DNA of 16,931 nucleotides. Source: a virus (lineage: Duplodnaviria > Heunggongvirae > Uroviricota > Caudoviricetes). The DNA lies in the IMG/VR virus record IMGVR_UViG_3300029095_000223. One strand, 5' to 3'. A program made the translations under genes and the position numbers. Below, one piece after another: positions 1 to 16,591 of the stretch. The first letter of the stretch is position 1; the number at the start of each line of letters is the position of its first letter. Below the pieces are notes generated by a model, which saw only the letters and a list, made by a program, of their open reading frames with translations, was not told where the DNA came from and ran no database searches.

Positions 1-117
1 TATCACAGCACCGGACTGCTCACCGGATGTCATGGTGGCTGACGTTCCCATGTACCCGCGTATCGTTTCATCGGCGCAGGCAATGGCAGCATCGAACAGG
101 TTATCGAAATCAGCCAC
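1..117 (-). CDS. Lambda-like head-tail joining protein FII, N-terminal 39 codons (gene runs off the window start)
   Basis: Reverse-complement of 1-117 translates VADFDNLFDAAIACADETIRGYMGTSATMTSGEQSGAVI, matching the lambda gpFII N-terminus as I recall it. Apparent GTG start at 117, 11 nt after the FI stop. Partial. Confidence 0.7.
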   Translation of the reverse strand, partial: MADFDNLFDAAIACADETIRGYMGTSATMTSGEQSGAVI

Positions 118-128
118 AGCGCCTCCCG

Positions 129-524
129 TTATTGCATTCTGGCCAGGCCGCGCTCTGTCATTTCAGCTGCCACACCGGCAGAGACACGGAACGCCGTTCC
201 CGGCAGCACAAATGCCACAGCCTCATCCCGCGTGGCGTGAAGTGCATCAGTATGCAGCGTCACCAGTGCCACAACCGTGACCAGATCAGCCGTATCAGTC
301 ACGGTATCCGGCTGCGCTGATACAACCTCATTTTCATGTCCGGTCAGCACATTTTCCGGGCTGAGAGGGGTCTCCTGACCGGCAGTGTCGCCCGTGTCAT
401 CAAGCTCTTCTTCCAGCTCTGCCACACGGAGCGCCAGTTTTTCTTTCGTCCCCGTCAGGCTGATATCACGGTTCAGTTGTTCACCCAGCGAGCGGAGACG
501 GGCAATCAGTTCATCTTTCGTCAT
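129..524 (-). CDS. Lambda-like DNA packaging protein FI
   Basis: ORF-track protein from internal Met (MTKDELIARLRSLGEQLNRD...TERGLARMQ, 131 aa) matches lambda gpFI from memory. GGAGGAG Shine-Dalgarno upstream of the ATG at 524. Position immediately downstream of E as in lambda. Confidence 0.85.
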   Translation of the reverse strand: MTKDELIARLRSLGEQLNRDISLTGTKEKLALRVAELEEELDDTGDTAGQETPLSPENVLTGHENEVVSAQPDTVTDTADLVTVVALVTLHTDALHATRDEAVAFVLPGTAFRVSAGVAAEMTERGLARMQ

Positions 525-565
525 GGACTCCTCCACAGAGAAACAATGGCCCCGAAGGGCCATGA

Positions 566-1591
566 TTACGCCAGTTGTACAGACACGAACTCATCAGGGT
601 CAGCCAGCAGCATCAGCGGTGCTGACTGAATCATGGTGAACTCACGCGCCGGGTCGCCGGTGGTCACCCAGTTTTTCGGGTAACGGGCAGAGGCGTTAAT
701 GCCTTCGCGCTGTGCGTCCGCATCCTGAATGCAACCATAGGTGCGCAGACCGCGTGCCTGAGTGTTCCCCAGCACCATCGTGTTGTCCGGCAGGAAGTTC
801 TTTTTGACGCCGTTTTCCACGTACTGTCCGGAATACACGACGATGGCCACATCGCCATACATTCCCTTATAAGACACCGCTTTGCCCAGGTCTTTTACCG
901 CTGTCTCCAGCTCGGAATGAGAGCCGCGACGGGTATCCAGCTTCTCCCTGACGGCCTTGAAGGAACGGAACAGCGCCCAGCCTTTCGGATCAAACACGAT
1001 GATATTCACCACACCGCTGGCGTTCAGCGCGTAGGCTTCGATATCGTCGGTCGGGTCATACGTGGACTTGTCACGCTTGCTCCACTCCGTGCCGCCGGAC
1101 TGCGTGATGTTATTCGCCGCACTGCGGCCCATATCCACCTCAACCGGATCGAAGGCTTCACCGGTCATGGTGTATTTGCCCTTAAGCACGGCAGAAACTG
1201 CCTGCATCTCTTCGACCTGGGCAATCGCCAGATTTTCATCCAGCATATTCTGCCGAATAATACGGCGACGACGGTAAGCCGGGTCAGCCAGGTTCTGCGG
1301 ATCTTCATCCGGCAGGCGACGCAGGGTCATCTGCGGATTCACCTCATGCTTGGGTTTGACATAACCCGGCGTAAATTCAGAGGTGGAGCCGCCACGGGAT
1401 CGGATAACCTCACCGGAAACAATCGGCGAAACGTACAGCGCCATGTTTACCAGTCCCGGAATTTGTGAGAGATAGACTTTTTCCGTGGTGAAAGGATAGG
1501 TTTCACGGAAAAACAGGCGCAGAAACAGCGGATCGAACTTAAAGTGATGCTGGGTCGATGCCAGTAATTCTGCAGTTGTATATACAGACAT
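566..1591 (-). CDS. Lambda-like major capsid protein E
   Basis: 341-aa translation (MSVYTTAELLA...EFVSVQLA) is near-identical along its length to lambda gpE as recalled. ATG confirmed at 1589-1591. Confidence 0.95.
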   Translation of the reverse strand: MSVYTTAELLASTQHHFKFDPLFLRLFFRETYPFTTEKVYLSQIPGLVNMALYVSPIVSGEVIRSRGGSTSEFTPGYVKPKHEVNPQMTLRRLPDEDPQNLADPAYRRRRIIRQNMLDENLAIAQVEEMQAVSAVLKGKYTMTGEAFDPVEVDMGRSAANNITQSGGTEWSKRDKSTYDPTDDIEAYALNASGVVNIIVFDPKGWALFRSFKAVREKLDTRRGSHSELETAVKDLGKAVSYKGMYGDVAIVVYSGQYVENGVKKNFLPDNTMVLGNTQARGLRTYGCIQDADAQREGINASARYPKNWVTTGDPAREFTMIQSAPLMLLADPDEFVSVQLA

Positions 1592-1603
1592 AAATTATTT
1601 CCA

Positions 1604-1626
1604 TAAAAAAAGCCGCACAGGCGGCC
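1604..1626 (-). terminator. GC hairpin plus U7 tract (minus-strand sense) about 10 nt upstream of the E start codon; terminator-like or RNA-processing element
   Basis: Seen in sequence: plus-strand aaaaaaa-gccgc-acag-gcggc; on the minus strand the hairpin is followed by TTTTTTT. I believe the same element exists between D and E in lambda. Confidence 0.4.
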
Positions 1627-1655
1627 TTTGTTGATGAAGGGGAAGATTAAACGAT

Positions 1656-1827
1656 GCTGAAAGGGCAGTGTTTCCCAGCGCCCTTCCTGGTATGCGGATT
1701 CTTTCGGGAGATAGTAATTGGCATCCGCCCATTCAACGGCGGTCTGTGGCTCCGGCCTGAACAGTGAGCGAAGCCCGGCGCGGACAAAATGCCGCAGCCT
1801 GTTAACCTGACTGTTCGATATATTCAC
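1656..1827 (-). pseudogene. Terminase large subunit (gpA) N-terminal remnant, first about 57 codons, fused out of frame to the tail end of the D/E intergenic sequence
   Basis: First 57 aa of ORF 1447-1827 (MNISNSQVNRLRHFVRAGLRSLFRPEPQTAVEWADANYYLPKESAYQEGRWETLPFQ) match the lambda gpA N-terminus. After that the frame reads through ...ATC GTT TAA (like the last codons of lambda D) and into E in a non-E frame. Start overlaps the Nu1 stop as in lambda. Confidence 0.8.
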
Positions 1828-2347
1828 TCAGCAACCCCGGTATCAGTTCATCCAGCGCGGCTGCCTTGTTCATGGCTTTGATGATATCCCGTTTCAGGAA
1901 ATCAACATGTCGGTTTTCCAGTTCCGGAAAACGCCGCTGCACCGACAGGGGGATCCCGTCGAGAATACTGGCAATTTCACCTGCGATCCGCGACAGCACG
2001 AAAGTACAGAATGCGGTTTCCACCACTTCAGCGGAGTCTCTGGCATTTTTCAGCTCCTGTGCGTCGGCCTGTGCACGCGTAAGTCGGTGGCGTTCGTACT
2101 CAATAGTCCCTGGCTGGAGATCTGTCTCGCTGGCCTGCCGCAGTTCTTCAACTTCCCGGCGCAGCTTTTCGTTCTCAATTTCAGCATCCCTTTCGGCATA
2201 CCATTTTATAACGGCGGCAGAGTCATAAAGCACCTCATTACCCTTGCCACCGCCTCGCAGAACGGGCATTCCCTGTTCCTGCCAGTTCTGAATGGTACGG
2301 ATACTCGCACCGAAAATGTCAGCCAGCTGCTTTTTGTTGACTTCCAT
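1802..2347 (-). CDS. Terminase small subunit Nu1 (NohA/NohD-like)
   Basis: 181-aa translation (MEVNKKQLADIFGASIRTIQNWQEQGMPVLRGG...SEYIEQSG) matches lambda gpNu1 almost residue for residue from memory. Correct distance from cosN. Confidence 0.9.
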   Translation of the reverse strand: MEVNKKQLADIFGASIRTIQNWQEQGMPVLRGGGKGNEVLYDSAAVIKWYAERDAEIENEKLRREVEELRQASETDLQPGTIEYERHRLTRAQADAQELKNARDSAEVVETAFCTFVLSRIAGEIASILDGIPLSVQRRFPELENRHVDFLKRDIIKAMNKAAALDELIPGLLSEYIEQSG

Positions 2348-2524
2348 TGTTCATTCCACGGCCAAAAACAGAGAAAGGAAACGACAGAGGCCCAAAAGTT
2401 CGTTTTCAGCACCTGTCGTTTCCTTTCTTTTCAGGGGGTATTTTAAATAAAAACATTAAGTTACGACGAAGAAGAACGGAAACGCCTTAAACCGGAAAAT
2501 TTTCATAAATAGCGAAAACCCGCG

Positions 2525-2536
2525 AGGTCGCCGCCC
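2525..2536. other. cosN cohesive-end site (12-nt, GGGCGGCGACCT on the minus strand), flanked by cosB (about 2348-2524) and the cosQ/phage right end (about 2537-2640)
   Basis: Reverse-complement of 2511-2536 is GGGGCGGCGACCTCGCGGGTTTTCGC, the lambda left-end sequence. Reverse-complement of 2537-2549 is CCGACAGGTTACG, the lambda right end. Surrounding sequence matches the lambda ends as recalled. Confidence 0.85.
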
Positions 2537-2735
2537 CGTAACCTGTCGGATCACCGGAAAGGACCCGTAAAGTGATAATGATTATCATCTACATATCACA
2601 ACGTGCGTGGAGGCCATCAAACCACGTCAAATAATCAATTATGACGCAGGTATCGTATTAATTGATCTGCATCAACTTAACGTAAAAACAACTTCAGACA
2701 ATACAAATCAGCGACACTGAATACGGGGCAACCTC

Positions 2736-2969
2736 ATGTCAACGAAGAACAGAACCCGCAGAACAACAACCCGCAACATCCGCTTTCCTAACCAAATGAT
2801 TGAACAAATTAACATCGCTCTTGAGCAAAAAGGGTCCGGGAATTTCTCAGCCTGGGTCATTGAAGCCTGCCGCCGGAGACTGTGCTCAGAAAAAAGAGTT
2901 TCTTCTGAAGCAAACAAAGAAAAGAGTGACATTACTGAATTGCTCAGAAAACAGGTCAGACCAGATTGA
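2736..2969 (+). CDS. Small basic prophage protein, YnfO/YlcI-like (DUF3950-type) candidate
   Basis: 77-aa ORF MSTKNRTRRTTTRNIRFPNQMIEQINIALEQKGSG... with GGGG Shine-Dalgarno 7 nt upstream. Placement next to the Nu1 homolog resembles ylcI/ynfO in K-12 cryptic prophages. Family assignment is from memory and unverified. Confidence 0.55.
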   Translation: MSTKNRTRRTTTRNIRFPNQMIEQINIALEQKGSGNFSAWVIEACRRRLCSEKRVSSEANKEKSDITELLRKQVRPD

Positions 2970-3026
2970 AGCAATTTAGATAATCGTGCAGACTACGCCC
3001 CCTCATATCACATGGAAGGTTTATCT

Positions 3027-3437
3027 ATGGATCAGGTAGTCATTTTTAAACAAATATTTGATAAAGTTCGAAACGATTTAAACTATCAATGGTTTTATTC
3101 TGAGCTAAAACGTCACAATGTCTCACATTACATTTACTATTTAGCCACAGAGAATGTTCATATTGTATTAAAAAATGATAATACAGTGTTATTAAAGGGC
3201 CTAAAAAACATTGTGTCTGTCAAATTTTCAAAGGATAGGCATCTTATAGAAACGACCTCTAATAAGCTGAAATCCAGAGAGATCACATTTCAGGAATACA
3301 GAAGAAACCTTGCTAAAGCAGGAGTTTTTCGGTGGGTTACAAATATCCACGAACAAAAAAGATATTACTATACCTTTGATAATTCATTACTATTTACTGA
3401 AAGCATCCAGAAAACTACACAGATCTTACCACTCTAA
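3027..3437 (+). CDS. YdfO-like prophage protein (DUF1398-type), 136 aa
   Basis: ORF 3012-3437; the second ATG at 3027 has a GGAAGG Shine-Dalgarno 7 nt upstream and gives 136 aa ([24 protein letters not shown]...). Identity to K-12 YdfO is by recollection of size and context only. Confidence 0.6.
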
Positions 3438-3588
3438 ACCATAACGTCCGGCTTCTCTCACTCCTGAGCCGGACTGCATTGGTTTAATAAAAACCATCAA
3501 CAATGGTGATTTAGATATTCGGAACCATTCAAATATAACAAAACCCCGTAAAAACGAGGTTTATGGATAAATTTTATTATTGAATACA

Positions 3589-3762
3589 TCAGATTAAATT
3601 AATCTTGACATCATAGCTTTCAAGACCCGTCATTTTTTCCCGTGCGGTAAACTGAATACTGGTAACTTCTTTCCCGGTCTTTTTCTTAAGTTCAATAATT
3701 TTTTTTGTTATATATTCAGAAATATCTGCTTCTGCTTTTGTTTTTAAGTTTTCAATATTCAT
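3589..3762 (-). CDS. gnsB: GnsB (Gns-family small protein), 57 aa
   Basis: Not in the ORF track (below its length cutoff). Reverse-complement of 3589-3762 translates MNIENLKTKAEADISEYITKKIIELKKKTGKEVTSIQFTAREKMTGLESYDVKINLI, clearly homologous to GnsA/GnsB. TGA stop at 3589-3591. Confidence 0.8.
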   Translation of the reverse strand: MNIENLKTKAEADISEYITKKIIELKKKTGKEVTSIQFTAREKMTGLESYDVKINLI

Positions 3763-3933
3763 CATTTCCTCTTTTAGTCTGTTATGACTTTCCAGTTACA
3801 CAGTAAGTCGATTATATGGTGCAAACGTGTAAAAGATAAGATGAAACATCGCAATAATCAACATACGATAGTCTAAATTTTACACAAACAGACAAAGAGA
3901 ATTTTCCTGAATTATCAATGCAATAGCATCAAA

Positions 3934-4089
3934 TCAACTCAAGAGCCTTATTGCTGCTTCCAGAATTTCTTCTGAAGTAACATGTCGATCCGCGGCTACA
4001 TAAATGACTTTATGATCTCCGGTCAGAGATGGAAACCCTGCGGCCATTACAGTAAGGTGTGTTTTTTCGCCATTTGGATATTCACGCAT
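3934..4089 (-). CDS. YnfN-like small protein (51 aa from Met40; alternative starts at 4164 giving 76 aa or 4110 giving 58 aa)
   Basis: ORF 3934-4206; the 51-aa form MREYPNGEKTHLTVMAAGFPSLTGDHKVIYVAADRHVTSEEILEAAIRLLS has a GGAG about 13 nt upstream. Size and position (between gnsB and cspI) fit K-12 ynfN as recalled. Start is uncertain. Confidence 0.5.
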   Translation of the reverse strand: MREYPNGEKTHLTVMAAGFPSLTGDHKVIYVAADRHVTSEEILEAAIRLLS

Positions 4090-4205
4090 GATGGTGTTAA
4101 CTCCAGTCATCGCTGGCACTACCACTGCTGGTTCAGAGTTAAAAAAAACTATGATTTTTTTCATGATGTTACCGTAGTATGTGAGTATCCATCGAATAGA
4201 CACCA

Positions 4206-4228
4206 AGCAAAAAAGCTCCCGAAGGAGC
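4206..4228 (-). terminator. Candidate intrinsic terminator downstream of cspI
   Basis: Plus strand aaaaaaaa-gctcc-cgaa-ggagc: on the minus-strand RNA a 5-bp GC stem with a 4-nt loop is followed by a U-rich tract. Lies about 200 nt downstream of the cspI stop. Short stem, so weak. Confidence 0.35.
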
Positions 4229-4435
4229 CTTCATTTTCACTTTTTTAAATCCAACGACAGACGGCTGGCATTTAAGTATTGTGAAATATTATCAAATGTA
4301 ATCATCATTGATTTACAAAAGATACATTTTGCCCCGAAAGGATTCATGTCAGAAACATCAAAAGATGATGTTCTATACTGGGAACCATGACAACACGGGC
4401 ATCTAAAGTGAATATGGTTTGTAATATTGTCTACC

Positions 4436-4648
4436 TCAAAGCGCCACTACATGAACAGCGGCAGGACCTTTAGGTCCGTTCTCAATACCAAATTCAACTT
4501 CCTGATTCTCAGTTAATGTTTTGAAATCGTTGCTCTGAATTGCTGAGAAATGGACAAACACATCTTTGCTGCCATCTTTCGGCGTGATGAAACCAAAACC
4601 TTTTTCAGGGTTAAACCATTTCACTAAACCAGTCATTTTGTTAGACAT
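4436..4648 (-). CDS. cspI: Cold-shock protein CspI (CspA family)
   Basis: 70-aa translation [70 protein letters not shown] has the CspA-family cold-shock domain motifs. AAGG Shine-Dalgarno upstream and a long AT-rich leader. Confidence 0.9.
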
Positions 4649-5010
4649 AATTATTACCTTTTGAAGAAATTAGCCCTTGGGCAGAATGGTCCGAAAAAAA
4701 ATATCAGAGAGAAAAACCAACAAGGAAATCTCAAGAGGTACAAATAATAAAATTATAACAATGACTGCTTCAGATAAATTTGTAACAAACCAGAACACCA
4801 TTAACGCATGATTAACCACCCATAGCAAGGATTACTTTTGTAAAGAAAAACACAGCAATGAAAGAATAGTTTTATTTATTAATAAAACGTGTCATTCTGA
4901 TTAAGACCTTTTATCTTACCCTTAAGATTTCAGGAATTTTGGCTCATGGAAGAGTCCTTTTTATTTAAATTTTACATTCCGCGATGTAAATGTTCCGATT
5001 TAATATTACC

Positions 5011-6034
<1,024 letters not shown>

Positions 6035-6038
<4 letters not shown>

Positions 6039-6346
6039 AGATATTTATGATGAGGACGCTCGTGCTTATTGGCAGGATTTTCAATCTTAAAGGAGTACTG
6101 ATGCTGCAGATAAGACTCAACTTTTTCTGACAATTTTTCTGCTACTTCCAGGAAGACTTGCCGGACGCTCCTTCTGGCTGCTGCCTCATAAAACTCCAGC
6201 GCAGCTCCTTCAACACGGTCCATGGCGACATCCAGGTCAAAAATTTCACCGTCAAAGCGTTCTTTGTCCTGTAAGGCTACAGTTACCGTAACTTTATTCT
6301 CAAAATTACGGACTCCTTTCACAACCAGTTCATAGTCTTGAGTCAT
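6035..6346 (-). CDS. YdfR-like protein (DUF1327-type) within the lysis cassette
   Basis: 103-aa ORF (MTQDYELVVKGVRNFENKVTVTVALQDKERFDGE...) between holin and lysozyme, overlapping the lysozyme start by 4 nt. Name assigned by context and size from memory. Confidence 0.65.
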
Positions 6347-6350
6347 TGGA

Positions 6351-6566
6351 TTACTCTCCTCTCGCAGCCTTACGCCTGTCTTCTTTAATCTTGAAATAAA
6401 GATTTGTCAGATACGTCAGCAGGCCAAAAACCAGGCTACCCAGCACACCGATTGCAGCCCACTGTGACGGAGTTACTTTATCGAGTAACTGCAATGCCCA
6501 GAAACCAGCATTACCCGCCGATGTGCCATAGGCAACACCTGTTGTTAACTTATCCATTGATTTCAT
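6351..6566 (-). CDS. Holin (EssQ-like), 71 aa
   Basis: From Met26 of the track ORF ([31 protein letters not shown]...[32 protein letters not shown]): two hydrophobic segments and a charged C-terminus. GGTGAGG Shine-Dalgarno before the ATG at 6566. First gene of the lysis cassette. Confidence 0.75.
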
Positions 6567-6785
6567 ATCCTCACCCCGATGTACACGGATGGTGCAATAT
6601 GTTTGAAAAGATCGGAGTCTACGGGGTAGTTTTGACAGCACACGTTGTTCTCAACGGCGCTAAAAAAACATACACATTAAAAATGTGGGTAATTATTTTG
6701 AAAGAAAGTCATATATAAAATAATAATACGAGAAATGTTTTCATATTTAGTGTACTGTATACGGCCATTTATACAGGAAAAGCCT

Positions 6786-6956
6786 ATGTCAGAACGTAAA
6801 AACTCAAAATCACGCCGTAATTATCTCGTTAAATGTTCCTGCCCAAACTGCACCCAAGAGTCAGAACACAGTTTTTCAAGAGTACAAAAAGGTGCCCTTT
6901 TGATCTGCCCTCATTGCAACAAAGTATTCCAGACAAATCTTAAAGCTGTAGCCTGA
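6786..6956 (+). CDS. Small zinc-ribbon protein (56 aa; CxC-x2-C ... C-x2-C), possibly the YnfU-type putative zinc-binding protein
   Basis: From the internal ATG at 6786 with an AGGAAA Shine-Dalgarno 6 nt upstream: MSERKNSKSRRNYLVKCSCPNCTQESEHSFSRVQKGALLICPHCNKVFQTNLKAVA. Four-Cys arrangement typical of zinc ribbons. Name recollection uncertain. Confidence 0.5.
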   Translation: MSERKNSKSRRNYLVKCSCPNCTQESEHSFSRVQKGALLICPHCNKVFQTNLKAVA

Positions 6957-7018
6957 TTGATTTTATTAGTAACAAGTATTTTTTATATTTTAATAATATA
7001 TTTAAAGCAGATAATAAA

Positions 7019-7038
7019 AAACCCGCCTGAGCGGGTTT
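7019..7038 (-). terminator. Intrinsic terminator (minus-strand sense; A-tract on the other side gives possible bidirectional function)
   Basis: aaacccgc-ctga-gcgggttt hairpin (8-bp stem). On the minus strand it is followed by TTTTTATTAT. Lies downstream of cspB (minus) and of the zinc-ribbon gene (plus). Confidence 0.5.
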
Positions 7039-7319
7039 GAGATTGTGGTGCTTTTTGTGGGAGTCATCCACTTACGCACTTTGTTTTGCCATGCCAGCAG
7101 TTAGCTTCTGCTGTAAAACTATTCATGCAGCAAACCTGCACTTCACCACAATGGTTAGCATACTTTTCCTGATTAAGATTTTGCCAAATATGCTAGCCAT
7201 TGTTTCATGTATTGGACCTCCTTACTTTTTATTAAAGAGATCCAATATTCACTACTCTGTCCGTATCTCTACTCAGGCATCAGCCTTCTTCGTTATCGTA
7301 TACAGACGAGCGATGAATT

Positions 7320-7535
7320 TTAATCAGTAATGATGACATTTGCTGCTGCAGGACCTTTAGCACCACTCTCTATAGAGAAGGTAACCTTTTGACCTTCAAA
7401 TAAGGTTCGATAATTATCATTCTGAATCGCAGAAAAATGCACAAACACATCTTTACTACCATCAACAGGAGAAATAAAGCCGAAACCTTTATCAGCGTTA
7501 AACCATTTTACTAAACCAGTCATTTTATTTGACAT
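7320..7535 (-). CDS. cspB: Cold-shock protein CspB (CspA family)
   Basis: 71-aa translation [71 protein letters not shown]. Divergent from cspF as in Qin. Confidence 0.9.
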
Positions 7536-7835
7536 TCTACATTCCTTAACTTGAGCCTTTCGGCATAAATGGTTTGCATAACAGAAACGACTTCGTACTT
7601 AATTGGAGAGACTCAAAGAAGGAATAAGTGAATAACACCTGAAATGAGAACTGCTTTAGTAAACTACTTCGTATATCGTCTGTTCTTCAAACCGACGCAA
7701 TCATTAACGCATAGTTGAACATATGAAGCAATGTTTATTTTAGACATCCAGCCATCTTCAACCCCATCAAAAAACTATAGCTTTCTTCAGGAACGTGTGT
7801 ATAGTGCGCCAAGTTATCAGTATTAAGGAATTTTT

Positions 7836-8048
7836 TTGTCCCGTAAAATGACAGGAATTGTCAAAACCTTTGACGGCAAAAGCGGCAAGGGTCTTATCAC
7901 CCCATCCGATGGTCGTATCGATGTCCAGCTTCATGTTTCAGCGCTCAATCTCCGCGATGCAGAAGAAATTACCACCGGATTACGCGTGGAATTTTGCCGG
8001 ATAAATGGTCTGCGTGGCCCTTCAGCTGCCAATGTTTACCTTTCATGA
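7836..8048 (+). CDS. cspF: Cold-shock protein family member CspF
   Basis: 70-aa translation [70 protein letters not shown]: divergent CspA-family member as recalled for CspF/CspH. Divergent from cspB across an approximately 300-bp promoter region. Confidence 0.9.
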
Positions 8049-8102
8049 GCTATATTAAAGCTTTAATTTCAGGCCCCATCGGATCACACATGGAGAGTTT
8101 TT

Positions 8103-8192
8103 ATGAATAACCCCGTCTGTCTTGATGACTGGTTGATTGGCTTTAAAAGCTTATGCTGTACTTTGGCCGTAATAGCTCTGCTAATAATATAA
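8103..8192 (+). CDS. Candidate 29-aa small hydrophobic protein (unannotated small ORF)
   Basis: ATG at 8103 preceded by GGAGAG at 6-nt spacing; [32 protein letters not shown] at 8190-8192. Only sequence-level support. Confidence 0.25.
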
Positions 8193-8340
8193 TAAGCAGA
8201 CTCATTGTGTTTAGGGACATTGTACTGGAAGAAAACATTTTAAACATCAGGCAAATAACCAAGTCACCAGCTAAATAATAAGTTAACAGACATGAGTCCC
8301 GGGATGAGATTCAACATTACCATTGCCCCATTTAAAGCAC

Positions 8341-8364
8341 AAAACCCGCTCATCAGCGGGTTTT
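8341..8364. terminator. Bidirectional-looking intrinsic terminator hairpin; candidate tR'-like terminator for the Q-dependent late promoter and/or cspF terminator
   Basis: aaaacccgct-catc-agcgggtttt: perfect 10-bp stem with a 4-nt loop. CTACTTTTTC follows on the plus strand; a U-rich run follows on the minus-strand RNA. Confidence 0.5.
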
Positions 8365-8409
8365 CTACTTTTTCTTAACGTCGGGTATACAAAGCCCATC
8401 GTTGAAAAA

Positions 8410-8438
8410 ATTTTATCCATATTTTTTGAAAAATGCAA
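8410..8438 (-). promoter_or_regulatory. Sigma-70 promoter, candidate Q-dependent late promoter (PR'-like)
   Basis: Minus-strand sequence TTGCAT-17 nt-TAAAAT (-35 at 8433-8438, -10 at 8410-8415), about 30 nt downstream of the Q stop, with the hairpin about 40-60 nt further on. This is the canonical position of PR'/qut/tR' in lambdoid phages. Confidence 0.45.
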
Positions 8439-8469
8439 ACATCATGTCGCCATCTTCAGCAAAAATCAT

Positions 8470-9222
8470 TTATCTCGTCACCTTCCTCAATTGCGCTTCC
8501 GCGTATGCTTCTTCCTGCCAGCACTTTGTTACCAGTTTACCAATGACGTCCGCATACCCCTTATACCACTGATAATCGGTCAGGTCTGGTACCAGCTTCT
8601 GGACATGACGTCGTGCCAGCGTGGTCGGTAAACGACTAAACCGGTTTCCATTACAACGCCCACAAATCTTATATACCGGTACGCCATGAAACCGGGTTCT
8701 TTTTTCATCCAGAACAATCCCTTTACCCTTACACCCTCTGCACGCTGTGCTGGCTTCGCCCTTACCATGGCAATGCTGACATAGTTCCTTCACCCATTCT
8801 TCCTTGATTACAGATTCCCCGCGTCTGTAGTGTTTCACCACTTCGCGCAATACATTATAAAATCCCGTACCTGAACAATGCTCACAGCGAGCCTTACTTG
8901 CCGCAGACCTGGAGTAATCAGCAAAGGCAAAACTCACGAGGTAAGGAATAATCTGTAACCGGATTTCTTCACTCAATTTGTTCAATGTCGGGTTATCCAG
9001 TGCCATCGCGTAATTTAGCAGGCCTTCAATCGCAAACTGAGGGTCCTGAACACCAACTTTTGCCAGAAATAAGGCCAACCCAAGTGGTGCTTTCGACTGC
9101 ACCATCCCCTGCGCTGCCATTACATCCGTAATTGTTAAACAACCGGTGCCTGTCGCTGGAGCGTCATCGCTCAATTTTGGAGATTTTGGGGAGTAATATT
9201 TTGGTAAGGCTTCAAGGTTCAT
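8470..9222 (-). CDS. Late-gene antiterminator Q (QuuQ-like), 250 aa
   Basis: From Met11 of the track ORF (MNLEALPKYYSPK...), with a GGAGAA Shine-Dalgarno before the ATG at 9222. Cys-rich zinc-binding motifs (CEHCSGTG, CQHCHGKG, CRGCKGKG, CGRCNG) typical of Q antiterminators. Lies upstream of the lysis cassette. Confidence 0.85.
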   Translation of the reverse strand: MNLEALPKYYSPKSPKLSDDAPATGTGCLTITDVMAAQGMVQSKAPLGLALFLAKVGVQDPQFAIEGLLNYAMALDNPTLNKLSEEIRLQIIPYLVSFAFADYSRSAASKARCEHCSGTGFYNVLREVVKHYRRGESVIKEEWVKELCQHCHGKGEASTACRGCKGKGIVLDEKRTRFHGVPVYKICGRCNGNRFSRLPTTLARRHVQKLVPDLTDYQWYKGYADVIGKLVTKCWQEEAYAEAQLRKVTR

Positions 9223-11099: not shown

Positions 11100-11255
11100 T
11101 TACTCCTCAGGTTCGTAAGCTGTGAAGACAGCGACCTCCGTCTGGCCGGTTCGGATTCGTACCTCGCAGAGGTCTTTCCTCGTTACCAGTGCCGTCACTA
11201 TGACGGTTAAACAGATGACGATCAGGGCGATTAACATCGCCTTTTGCTGCTTCAT
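11100..11255 (-). CDS. hokD: Hok-family membrane toxin HokD (RelF), 51 aa
   Basis: Not in the ORF track as a minus-strand gene. Reverse-complement of 11100-11255 translates MKQQKAMLIALIVICLTVIVTALVTRKDLCEVRIRTGQTEVAVFTAYEPEE, then TAA. Sits 71 nt downstream of relE. Confidence 0.9.
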   Translation of the reverse strand: MKQQKAMLIALIVICLTVIVTALVTRKDLCEVRIRTGQTEVAVFTAYEPEE

Positions 11256-11326
11256 AGCCTGCTTCTCCTGTCAACGCAAAGCAGAAGTGTCACCTTCGGT
11301 GCGAAACAGAGATGTCATGCTTTGGT

Positions 11327-11614
11327 TCAGAGAATGCGTTTGACCGCCTCGCTATATACTTCCGAGCGTTCTCTTTTCCCAACAGAAATCACGAAAACGA
11401 CAACTTTCTCGTCTATAACCTGGTATACAAGGCGATAGCCTGAAGACCGGAGCTTAATCTTGTAACAATCAGGCATACCACGGAGCTTGTTTGCTTCAAT
11501 CCGGGGTGACTCAAGTACTTCAACCAGCTTCTTTTTCAACTGTTCACGTACCGTCGAGCCCAGCTTTCGCCATTCCTTTAGTGCCCGCTCGTCAAAATCC
11601 AGAAAATACGCCAT
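11327..11614 (-). CDS. relE: mRNA interferase toxin RelE
   Basis: 95-aa translation MAYFLDFDERALKEWRKLGSTVREQLKKKLVEVLESPRIEANKLRGMPDCYKIKLRSSGYRLVYQVIDEKVVVFVISVGKRERSEVYSEAVKRIL matches E. coli RelE as recalled. Start overlaps the relB stop. Confidence 0.95.
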   Translation of the reverse strand: MAYFLDFDERALKEWRKLGSTVREQLKKKLVEVLESPRIEANKLRGMPDCYKIKLRSSGYRLVYQVIDEKVVVFVISVGKRERSEVYSEAVKRIL

Positions 11615-11853
11615 CAGAGTTCATCCAGCGTCACACGTACTGGCTTAGGATTACGAAGCCGTTCTTTCACTATCTCCACAAGTTCAGCATCTTCATCACT
11701 CAGGAGTGTCTGTTTGAACGGCAAGCGTTCATTGTCAGCGATATACTCGAGCATGAGACGAAGCGCTTCAGAAGGAGTTACACCCATTTTTTCAAGCGCG
11801 GCGTAAGAACGCGCTTTAAGTTCATCGTCAATACGCAGGTTAATGCTACCCAT
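11614..11853 (-). CDS. relB: Antitoxin RelB
   Basis: 79-aa translation MGSINLRIDDELKARSYAALEKMGVTPSEALRLMLEYIADNERLPFKQTLLSDEDAELVEIVKERLRNPKPVRVTLDEL matches RelB as recalled. Operon order relB-relE-hokD. Confidence 0.95.
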   Translation of the reverse strand: MGSINLRIDDELKARSYAALEKMGVTPSEALRLMLEYIADNERLPFKQTLLSDEDAELVEIVKERLRNPKPVRVTLDEL

Positions 11854-13154: not shown

Positions 13155-14468
13155 TCAATCTTTTTTATCGGGATCAGGCTTCTTTTTAGGTAACTTCGGG
13201 GGCTTAACTTGCTGATGACTTTGCGTTCGGCGCGTAAGCCAGGGATGGTCAGCTTTAGGTTTAACATAGTATTTTGAGCGTAAATCAATACGGGCATTAT
13301 CCACTCGTTCATGGACACTCTTTTCATCATCCAGTGGTATAGGCTCCGGGCCATCAACATACTTTTCCCAGCCCAGCGCTTTCCCGTCATACAGAACGTT
13401 AATTTCACCGTCAAAGTTCTCGCATACAGTAACAACCGAATGCCTAAGTCGATATCCCCGGCCCTCACTGCGTACCTGAAACGCACTGCTTTTGTACTGG
13501 AAAGTGAGATTTTTAGACAGAACGCGCTTCGCCTGTAGGCTGAAGATATAACCCAGTTCCTCTTCAGAATGGTGCACATCAAGATGAGCATTATCAGTAG
13601 TACGAGGCGACGTAGCGAACCGGTTGTTATAGGCTTCAATAAAGGTCGGCAACCATGCATTTGCTGTTTCAATATCACTGATATTCTGAAGCCGCATTTC
13701 TTTGACCAGCCTGTCCTGTAGTGTCTGATTGGCGCGCTCTACCCGCCCTTTTGCCTGCGGGCTGTTGGCATGGATTGGCTCGATGCCCAGTGTCTTTATC
13801 GCACGAGTGAACTGGGTCAGCTCACCTTCCCGCTCTGGGTTATTTACCCTGAATATACTGTGTCTATCAGAGTAGAGAGCGAGCGGTACGCCATGATCAT
13901 TAAGGTAACCCCGGAGGGTTTCCATGTAAGCCCGGGTTGTTTCAGCAGGCACAAAACGCAACGCCATCAACGCACTGGTGGCATCATCAATGAAAACGAT
14001 CAGTGTACATCTGGGGCCTCGATTTTCAAACCAGTCATGAGGTGAGCCATCAATCTGGATCAGTTCACCGTAAGATGGTCGTCGCATGCGGCGTTGATAT
14101 ATACGGGCAATTTTACGACGGCGTTCACGCCATAACCCCTCTTCTATCATCCACTTTCTGAGAGTTTCAACGGATAAAGATAAACCGTGTATCTCGCGCA
14201 ATTTTTCGCACGCAAACGTAGGTCCAAAATCAGCGTAACGGCCTTTGAGGAGTGAAATTACTGTTGCTCTGAATTCAGTAGAAAAGGAATTATTAGGACG
14301 CTTTCCACGTCGGTGGGAAACCAGACCAGAAGGCCCTTCATTTCTATACCGTTGCACCAGACGTTTAACCTGCCGAATAGAAATGCCAATGCGTGCCGCA
14401 GCTTGTTCCTGAATAATCTGAAGTCGGTGGAGTTCCTTATGACTCATCGTAACAGTCTCTTTGATCAT
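13155..14468 (-). CDS. DDE transposase/integrase-core protein with N-terminal helix-turn-helix (IS481/ISNCY-type), 437 aa
   Basis: ORF with N-terminal HTH-like region (MSHKELHRLQIIQEQAAARIGISIRQVKRLVQRYRNEG) and an rve-like core (LIQIDGSPHDWF...LIVFIDDATS...LYSDRHSIF...ANSPQAKGRVERANQTLQ). Basic C-terminal tail. ATG at 14468 with a GGGGG Shine-Dalgarno upstream. Family assignment is from motif recognition only. Confidence 0.85.
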   Translation of the reverse strand: MIKETVTMSHKELHRLQIIQEQAAARIGISIRQVKRLVQRYRNEGPSGLVSHRRGKRPNNSFSTEFRATVISLLKGRYADFGPTFACEKLREIHGLSLSVETLRKWMIEEGLWRERRRKIARIYQRRMRRPSYGELIQIDGSPHDWFENRGPRCTLIVFIDDATSALMALRFVPAETTRAYMETLRGYLNDHGVPLALYSDRHSIFRVNNPEREGELTQFTRAIKTLGIEPIHANSPQAKGRVERANQTLQDRLVKEMRLQNISDIETANAWLPTFIEAYNNRFATSPRTTDNAHLDVHHSEEELGYIFSLQAKRVLSKNLTFQYKSSAFQVRSEGRGYRLRHSVVTVCENFDGEINVLYDGKALGWEKYVDGPEPIPLDDEKSVHERVDNARIDLRSKYYVKPKADHPWLTRRTQSHQQVKPPKLPKKKPDPDKKD

Positions 14469-14951: not shown

Positions 14952-15980
14952 TTACGCCTTAATAGGGTTAATCACATTTCCGCTATCCGTACCATAGTAT
15001 TTTTTTGTAGTCATGCCTTGTTTATAATAATCATTTAACAGTTTGAGAAAGTTTCTTCCTTGCCTCTCATCTTCTATGACTAATTTACCATGCTCATTGG
15101 TCTTAAACTCTTCGTTCTGAAACATTTTTAGCACATCATTCATAGCTTGAACATCATTCTTTTCCAGAACCGTATGGTTACCTTTCTCAGCGATATGAGT
15201 GAGAATTTTTCTCAGTGATGGCTTATGAAGAATAGCTTGTTCAATAACATCTAAACCTTCAATAAGATCAAGTTCTTTAATTGTATTTAATGTTTTTTGT
15301 GCAGCTTCTGTAAACTCAACCTCCAAGCCTACAATAGCCTCAAAACTTTTCTTATGAAATACATAAAATTGATCTTTTATATAAACACAATCGATTTTGT
15401 CATCAAAATTGACTGCGCTGCCATCAAATGATCTTAACTCTTTATCTGTTTTATCAAACAAAGCGAATACGCGCTGAGTCATATTTTGTGGTTCATTTGT
15501 TGTGACTTTCCCCCTGCTGATTTTTCGGAAAGAATAAGTGACGTCAGCCCCCTTTTGGACTTTAATACAATAGGCCCACAAATCATTCTGAACCTCAGCA
15601 AGAGAGGTAAGTACAACTGGTTTATCATTCTTTATATCGTTATTAATAACTTTTGAAAACGATATCGCGTTATTCATAGCATAGGCATAAATCTTATTAT
15701 CAATATCATCATCAATAACAGTATACTTTTTCATCACAATATCATCTTTCGAAGCATGAGAAATAATCTGGTTTGATAAAGTATACTTAAAAAATTTAGC
15801 AATATCTGGAGCGATTGGAGCTTTAATGATTTTAAAATCGAATTTATCAACAACTCTTGCGGTTCTACTCATACCCGCTTTAAGATGTCTAGTAATGAAA
15901 TACAACGATATTTTCGCCGCATCATCATCCTTAAGTTGCTCAGCATACTCTAATAATTCTTCAAGCTTTAACATTTTCAT
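14952..15980 (-). CDS. Uncharacterised soluble protein (342 aa), second gene of an AT-rich two-gene operon; candidate defence-system component (KwaB-like by architecture only)
   Basis: Long clean ORF in very AT-rich DNA, with Lys/Asn/Asp/Ile-biased composition. Its ATG overlaps the upstream gene's TGA (ATGA at 15977-15980). No catalytic motif recognisable by eye. Confidence 0.8.
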   Translation of the reverse strand: MKMLKLEELLEYAEQLKDDDAAKISLYFITRHLKAGMSRTARVVDKFDFKIIKAPIAPDIAKFFKYTLSNQIISHASKDDIVMKKYTVIDDDIDNKIYAYAMNNAISFSKVINNDIKNDKPVVLTSLAEVQNDLWAYCIKVQKGADVTYSFRKISRGKVTTNEPQNMTQRVFALFDKTDKELRSFDGSAVNFDDKIDCVYIKDQFYVFHKKSFEAIVGLEVEFTEAAQKTLNTIKELDLIEGLDVIEQAILHKPSLRKILTHIAEKGNHTVLEKNDVQAMNDVLKMFQNEEFKTNEHGKLVIEDERQGRNFLKLLNDYYKQGMTTKKYYGTDSGNVINPIKA

Positions 15981-16591
15981 TCCTTATGGGATTCAGCATA
16001 AAAAAGTTTTGGGCCCACGTCCTCAACATCAAGAAGATCATCTTCCTCCAAATACTTTGATTTAGTCAAAACCATACCAGTGCGTTTTTTGTCGCTTTCT
16101 AAATCCAAATATGTAACTTGATATAAAGTATAATTAATACTTATTGTAGGATTTATAAGTATCATGCTTGAATTAATATATATTAAAGCCGTTACCGTTA
16201 ACAATATTGCTATAGGTATAACATTAGTTAAAGTGGATAGATCCTGAAATACAAACGGAATTATATATGTAAAAAGATAGCTTATTGATTCATTGTTTTT
16301 ATTTTCAATATCTATAACTCTTACAGTTCTACCACTAGTGGCGCATCGACGTTTTATATTTTTTAAAAAAATTGTTAATCCTACAATACCAAATAATGAT
16401 AATACACCAATGACACTGACCGCGCCAAAGTATTTAAAGAAAATAGTTAATGATTCAACACTTATACCTTTCCAATTTAAATAGCTTCTATAAGTATACA
16501 ATTGCACAAAACACATGATAAAGAATAGGGGAAGGTATGACACTATAAATAGCGAAACTCTAGCACCTAAATGTAGTTTATTTACTCTCAT
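15977..16591 (-). CDS. Predicted integral membrane protein (204 aa, about 4 TM helices plus acidic C-terminal tail), first gene of the two-gene operon; candidate defence-system membrane component (KwaA-like by architecture only)
   Basis: Hydrophobic segments VSLFIVSYLPLFFIMCFVQLYTY, YFGAVSVIGVLSLFGIVGLTIFL, ISYLFTYIIPFVF and VIPIAILLTVTALIYINSSMILI, with a basic loop KNIKRRCATSGR. Translationally coupled to the downstream gene. Confidence 0.8.
   Translation of the reverse strand: MRVNKLHLGARVSLFIVSYLPLFFIMCFVQLYTYRSYLNWKGISVESLTIFFKYFGAVSVIGVLSLFGIVGLTIFLKNIKRRCATSGRTVRVIDIENKNNESISYLFTYIIPFVFQDLSTLTNVIPIAILLTVTALIYINSSMILINPTISINYTLYQVTYLDLESDKKRTGMVLTKSKYLEEDDLLDVEDVGPKLFYAESHKE

Follow-up and report, generated by a model that had tools for sequence, protein, structure and literature searches.

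Probable scar of a single head-gene deletion at a 5-bp microhomology in a lambda-type prophage at the Qin locus of Escherichia coli DP051

Introduction

Large terminase subunits of the lambda gpA type (Pfam Terminase_GpA) are proteins of about 641 residues, which combine an ATPase (Walker) domain with a nuclease and prohead-binding region at the C-terminus. In the lacI gene of E. coli, spontaneous deletions occur between short direct repeats. The functions of gpA, gpNu1, the portal and cos are established lambda biology (reviewed in PMC2366019). Module exchange is common between lambdoid phages and defective prophages, and in K-12 a region of homology involving DLP12 extends across R, Rz, cos, nu1 and A (PMC3945230). 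The cryptic prophage Qin ranges in size from 11 to 97 kb among 189 strains (PMC6379469).

By its description, the nohD/truncated A region of DLP12 in K-12 has decayed in a similar way to the locus studied here, with cos and Nu1 preserved and the large terminase gene cut short. DLP12 is nevertheless another prophage, at another site and with another breakpoint. A literature search found no paper describing the junction between genes A and D that is the subject of this work, only general studies of Qin diversity and of defective-prophage recombination.

Here we analyzed a stretch of viral DNA of 16,931 nucleotides (IMG/VR record IMGVR_UViG_3300029095_000223), hereafter called the window. The feature under study very probably marks where one spontaneous deletion removed part of the late (head) operon from a lambda-type prophage at the Qin locus (ydfJ) of E. 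coli DP051.

Materials and methods

The window was searched by TBLASTN with every lambda head protein as query, and the reverse complement of window 1-2700 was aligned by BLASTN with positions 1-9000 of the lambda genome (NC_001416). Three-way junction alignments placed the window beside both parental breakpoints in lambda, DA33135 and CFSAN061771. A junction probe of 411 nt was run against 5,426 complete E. coli genomes. The exact junction 37-mer used for scanning was GGAAACACTGCCCTTTCAGCATCGTTTAATCTTCCCC.

Results and discussion

Position of the element at the Qin locus

The whole window is 100% identical to positions 2350944-2367874 of the DP051 chromosome (NZ_CP156034.1). In this genome the element lies between rspB and a truncated ydfJ (ydfJ'/ydfK), which is the Qin cryptic prophage locus, and spans about 33 kb from ydfJ' to int. 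Its cargo consists of ynfO, ydfO, gnsB, cspI, rzpQ, rrrQ, essD, cspB/F, ydfT, ydfU and rem, together with hokD, relBE, flxA, dicB, exo, xis and int. Both the insertion in ydfJ and this characteristic cargo identify the element as Qin. The two flanks, on the ydfJ' side and on the rspB side, are syntenic with K-12 and with DA33135.

The Qin prophage of K-12 MG1655 (NC_000913 1632277-1652745) has the ydfJ site and the right arm in common with DP051. It matches window 1819-7981 at 99.8% identity, a region that includes nohA, ynfO, ydfO, gnsB, cspI and the lysis genes. In K-12 as in DP051, the head-assembly genes have been lost by a deletion beginning in or beside gene A. In K-12, however, homology ends at window 1819 (gpA codon 3), and E, FI and FII are also absent, the deletion being larger. 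This larger deletion fuses nohA directly to stfQ, so that K-12 NohA has 189 residues instead of 181. Moreover, int, xis and exo are kept in DP051 but absent from K-12 Qin. The K-12 deletion either arose independently or overwrote a junction of the DP051 type. Descent of the K-12 deletion from the DP051 junction is undecidable, because the K-12 breakpoint lies upstream of that junction and would erase it.

A phage satellite of the cos type (PICI-like) was also considered for the element and rejected. Such satellites measure about 10-15 kb, against about 33 kb for this element; they bring their own genes for replication and for hijacking a helper, from which they obtain every structural protein. 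In the annotation of the element, by contrast, the early, lysis, capsid and tail-fibre genes are of the ordinary lambdoid kind and are collinear with those of complete Qin-site prophages.

Late genes kept and lost

The TBLASTN searches and the alignments give direct evidence for the gene content of the late region (Table 1). Nu1 was matched over residues 1-181 at 98.9% identity to lambda Nu1, and nohA matches Pfam Phage_Nu1 over the full profile (E = 3.9e-101). E was matched over residues 1-341 at 95.6% identity to lambda gpE, with a Pfam Phage_cap_E hit at E = 7.4e-70, and its accession, WP_000118192.1, is also found in undeleted prophages. FI is complete, lambda residues 1-132 being matched, and Pfam Packaging_FI is full-length. 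For FII, lambda residues 1-39 were matched within the window. In contrast to these genes, W, B, C, Nu3 and D gave zero matches in the window with the lambda head proteins as queries, and neither TBLASTN nor alignment found a trace there of gpA beyond the N-terminal remnant.

The original prediction, made from the letters of the window alone, had held that most of A plus W, B, C, Nu3 and D were missing, in agreement with these searches. It had also described Nu1, E, FI and FII as intact. This is borne out for Nu1, E and FI; for FII the window holds only 39 codons, and it is in the genome record that the gene is seen to be complete.

Table 1. Features of the late region, with window positions for the genes of its left part (ORF list; all on the minus strand), and positions of the TCAGC copies in undeleted head modules.
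Feature	Position	Strand	Remarks
FII, head-tail joining protein, first 39 codons	1..117	-	gene runs past window edge
FI, DNA-packaging chaperone	129..524	-	intact, 131 aa; ORF within 129-563
E, major capsid protein	566..1591	-	intact, 341 aa; WP_000118192.1
Fusion ORF, gpA 1-57 + 69 out-of-frame codons	1447..1827	-	126 codons, GTG start; from ORF list and translation
D/E intergenic spacer with terminator-like hairpin	1592..1646	-	identical to spacer of undeleted CFSAN061771 prophage
D remnant, last 14 nt	1647..1660	-	TCAGCATCGTTTAA (..TC AGC ATC GTT TAA); first 5 nt are the shared microhomology
Deletion junction, 5-bp microhomology TCAGC	1656..1660	-	overlap of two lambda blocks; single copy
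Large terminase gene A remnant, codons 1-57	1657..1827	-	GTG start 1827-1825
nohA/Nu1, small terminase subunit	1802..2347	-	intact, 181 aa; RefSeq nohA, WP_000453587.1
cos region, lambda right and left ends joined	2348..2898	-	contiguous; cosQ/cosN/cosB uninterrupted
TCAGC copies in lambda	left 878-882, right 6066-6070		missing from window: 5,188 bp
TCAGC copies in DA33135 (L005)	left 1314-1318, right 6502-6506		missing from window: 5,188 bp
TCAGC copies in CFSAN061771 (L006)	left 3801-3805, right 9001-9005		missing from window: 5,200 bp

An uninterrupted alignment links window 2898-1656 with lambda 48141-48502 followed by lambda 1-882, at 98.1% identity and with 1 gap. The left cohesive end, which is lambda position 1, falls at window 2536. 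A complete packaging site, with a cos 98% identical to that of lambda, is thus still present beside an intact Nu1 in this deleted prophage.

The junction between A and D

The BLASTN comparison with lambda returned two collinear blocks on the minus strand. The first joins lambda 1-882 to window 2536-1656 at 98.0% identity and contains cos, Nu1 and gpA codons 1-57. The second joins lambda 6066-7728 to window 1660-1 at 94.1% identity and contains the 3'-terminal 14 nt of D, the spacer between D and E with its hairpin, E, FI and the start of FII. Since lambda A starts at 711, lambda 882 is the first base of codon 58. On the other side, lambda D ends at 6079, so that 6066-6079 are its last 14 nt; the D stop codon falls at window 1649-1647.

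The three-way alignments give direct evidence for both breakpoints and for the microhomology between them. The window retains a single copy of TCAGC, whereas lambda, DA33135 and CFSAN061771 each have two and keep the 5,188-5,200 bp between them. The loss amounts to one TCAGC copy plus 5,188 bp by reference to lambda, or 5,200 bp by reference to the closest relative, CFSAN061771. No inserted bases, IS ends or att-like sequence were found at the junction in these alignments, and similarity of the flanks beyond the 5 bp of TCAGC is at background level. A repeat at both breakpoints, one copy left and no filler are the marks of a microhomology-mediated (illegitimate) deletion. When 200,000 pairs of breakpoints were placed at random in the head region of CFSAN061771, which is undeleted, a microhomology of at least 5 bp occurred at a frequency of 0.007. 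It is thus very unlikely that the TCAGC repeat is a coincidence.

Beyond the D stop codon, a pattern scan located the D/E hairpin (GCCGC-CTGT-GCGGC), whose stem occupies window 1612-1625 between an upstream A-run and a downstream T-run. RNA folding gave -15.2 kcal/mol (z = -2.05).

The original prediction had placed the join between about codon 57 of gpA and the last codons of D. This agrees with alignments to lambda and two E. coli prophages that lack the deletion, and the proposed alignment to the lambda left arm put the breakpoints at lambda 882/6066, with the 5 bp of TCAGC as microhomology. It had also read the sequence after 57 gpA-like codons as ...CAG CAT CGT TTA A, the 3' end of D, followed by the D/E hairpin and an intact E; the translation, the D 3' end, the hairpin and the full-length E at 1591-566 all match this description. 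Two observations could have spoken against it, namely a residue after codon 57 of another origin or an intact A elsewhere. The residue proved to be derived from D/E, no other segment of A is present in the window, and the Nu1-A'/D-E probe found a single matching place in the DP051 chromosome, where a second probe likewise hit only once. The observation and its main interpretation are correct.

The 126-codon reading frame

All 57 residues of the A remnant (VNISNSQ...ETLPFQ) are identical to lambda gpA. TBLASTN matched lambda gpA residues 1-61, of which only 1-57 are derived from A. Codon 57 (CAG) occupies window 1659-1657 and is followed by CAT CGT TTA ATC (H R L I F P F...). Read in the frame of the A remnant (TTA ATC), the TAA that ends D is no stop. 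The ORF therefore runs past it, crosses the D/E spacer and enters E for 145 nt before it ends with a stop at 1449-1447, which accounts for its 126 codons and for the coordinates 1447-1827 given in the original prediction.

The GTG start (1827) overlaps the end of nohA (1802) exactly as lambda 711 overlaps 736. This overlap with the 3' end of Nu1, together with the identity, establishes the descent of the remnant from gpA. It is not a full-length gpA of the Pfam Terminase_GpA type, having residues 1-57 only and no Pfam domain. The 126-residue fusion product as a whole had no Pfam match at E <= 0.01. As far as can be judged from its sequence, the 126-codon ORF is a pseudogene product and not a functional member of the gpA family, and it is probably a non-functional by-product of the deletion. 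RefSeq (PGAP) annotates window 1645-1827 as 'terminase, incomplete, missing C-terminus', so the broken terminase gene was already on public record. A promoter scan of window 1300-2800 found no sigma-70-like promoter, and thus no sign of a new promoter made by the junction.

Distribution and undeleted relatives

The junction was found in 5 of the 5,426 complete E. coli genomes, namely DP051, SCZE5, ECJXMCRH7, XH993 and VTB96816v, with 100% identity in all of them. As these genomes were assembled independently, an assembly artefact at the junction was ruled out. In 50,697 phage records there was no instance of the junction, and the exact 37-mer had zero matches in IMG/VR viral contigs and zero in GTDB species representatives. 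The junction is therefore rare, and it is of single origin.

Undeleted relatives are directly observed. A prophage that sits at this Qin site and has this right arm, but not the deletion, is present in DA33135 and in other genomes. Identity between DA33135 and the window is 99.9% over the stretch extending from ynfO to gpA codon 57 inclusive, and 94.2% over D'-E-FI-FII. The head module of CFSAN061771, the lysis region of which differs, is 99.9% identical to the window on either side of the junction. Between cos and the junction, the 881 nt contain a single mismatch (window 1865); the 1,660 nt on the right side likewise contain one (window 440). In lambda, DA33135 and CFSAN061771, the order cos-Nu1-A-W-B-C/Nu3-D-E-FI-FII is that of the window wherever genes are retained, lambda being 94-98% identical to it.

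An allele switch is apparent when window 1-1660 is compared with window 1656-2973. The E-FI-FII part is 94% identical to DA33135 and 99.9% identical to CFSAN061771, and Nu1-A' is essentially identical to both.

This mosaic could be taken to mean that the junction joins two lambdoid elements, the Nu1-A end of Qin and the D-E part of a second prophage or of an infecting phage. Such an origin would account for an E-FI-FII-Z' allele unlike that of other Qin-site prophages, in an island of approximately 2 kb that has a deletion junction at either end. The CFSAN061771 head module makes it unnecessary. Because this module matches both sides of the junction at 99.9%, a single deletion of 5,200 bp within one element is sufficient. 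Its differences from the window begin only at window 2553 and continue onward, just past cos, which places the mosaic boundary near cos. A swap of modules there, combined with a deletion inside the element, explains everything without a second partner at the junction. Moreover, recombination with a prophage located elsewhere would rearrange the chromosome, whereas the Qin flanks are syntenic with K-12 and DA33135. The 5-bp microhomology is expected both for one element and for two. Altogether, we consider a two-element origin of the junction very unlikely.

The simplest history is then that a module was first exchanged by ordinary homologous recombination, with the boundary near cos, and that a deletion inside one element came afterwards. 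Among the genomes of the collection, none that is undeleted pairs the Qin right arm with the exact E-FI-FII allele. The direct parent is therefore inferred and not observed, as Qin-site relatives such as DA33135 reach only 94% over E-FII.

For the deletion within one element, we propose illegitimate, microhomology-mediated recombination between the two direct TCAGC copies, of which the first falls at gpA codons 56-58 and the second at the fifth-from-last codon of D. Such an event would have removed one of the repeats together with the approximately 5.2 kb separating them. The pathway may have been RecA-independent replication slippage (copy-choice), or else break repair, end joining or annealing at short repeats. 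The break-repair route is equally possible, since two repeats of 5 bases with 5.2 kb between them lend themselves poorly to simple slippage. The outcome resembles spontaneous short-direct-repeat deletions in lacI of E. coli: one repeat copy stays and nothing is inserted.

The deletion is ordinary microhomology-mediated prophage decay. It is not novel in kind, and the gene was already annotated as broken. Its interest lies in offering a base-precise example of head-gene loss from a lambdoid prophage through a 5-bp microhomology; otherwise the result is mainly bookkeeping, and it raises no new question. Qin of the DP051 type is an intermediate between complete prophages at this site (the DA33135 type) and the much smaller Qin of K-12. 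The junction could also serve as a clonal marker of the small lineage that carries it.

Consequences of the deletion and further decay

The gpA ATPase and nuclease domains, W, the portal B, the protease and scaffold C/Nu3 and the decoration protein D are lost, and cos, Nu1, the 57-residue gpA stub, E, FI and FII are retained. An element of this composition would be unable to form proheads, to cut cos and to package DNA.

A second deletion lies just to the left of the window, where Z codon ~29 is joined to the interior of lom (L004 13169-13752 in DP051; L002 22195/22196 in SCZE5). Relative to DA33135 it measures 11,062 bp, with a 2-bp overlap, and it takes out U, V, G, T, H, M, L, K, I and J, nearly all of the tail genes. 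The Z'-lom' junction is carried by exactly the five genomes that have the A-D junction, so the two deletions cannot be ordered by their distribution. The original prediction had offered the head deletion as the explanation of the prophage's defect. It is sufficient for this, but with the 11-kb tail-gene deletion present as well it is neither the sole cause nor the only lethal lesion.

Decay has continued in SCZE5, where an extra deletion of 249 bp (83 codons) inside nohA, with a 3-bp overlap (L002 19998-20000), argues that Nu1 is under no strong constraint. This genome also has an IS150 insertion and has lost ydfT/ydfU.

These losses bear on whether the block cos-Nu1-gpA(1-57)-E-FI-FII might have been kept by selection as a functional module, either packageable with the aid of a helper or interfering with superinfecting lambdoid phages. 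The gpA stub might titrate Nu1, or foreign E might poison capsid assembly. Defective prophages do exchange DNA with infecting lambda (PMC3945230), which can be counted in favor of such a role. So can the intact and contiguous cos and the full-length Nu1, E and FI. The extreme N-terminus of gpA, which the stub retains, is reportedly the Nu1-binding region, as Frackman, Siegele and Feiss are said to have found in 1985. However, the stub continues into 69 out-of-frame codons, and no Pfam domain matches it. At about 33 kb from ydfJ' to int, the element falls short of the minimum for lambda packaging, about 37 kb. In addition, with only 5 carriers among 5,426 genomes there is essentially no divergence on which selection could be tested, and one of these carriers, SCZE5, is already missing 83 codons of nohA. 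We therefore regard a selected module as extremely improbable; the stub and the retained genes most likely have no function and are remnants of the deletion within one element.

Other features of the window

According to the RefSeq annotation of DP051, the toxin-antitoxin genes hokD, relE and relB of Qin are intact at window 11100-11853. A truncated ISNCY transposase lies at about 13425-14447. Farther along the window, on the minus strand, the RefSeq annotation places a protein resembling KwaB (Kiwa anti-phage) at about 14952-15974, and a hypothetical protein of 204 residues adjoins it at 15977-16591. This KwaB-like region (window 14952-16591) may be defence cargo carried within Qin.
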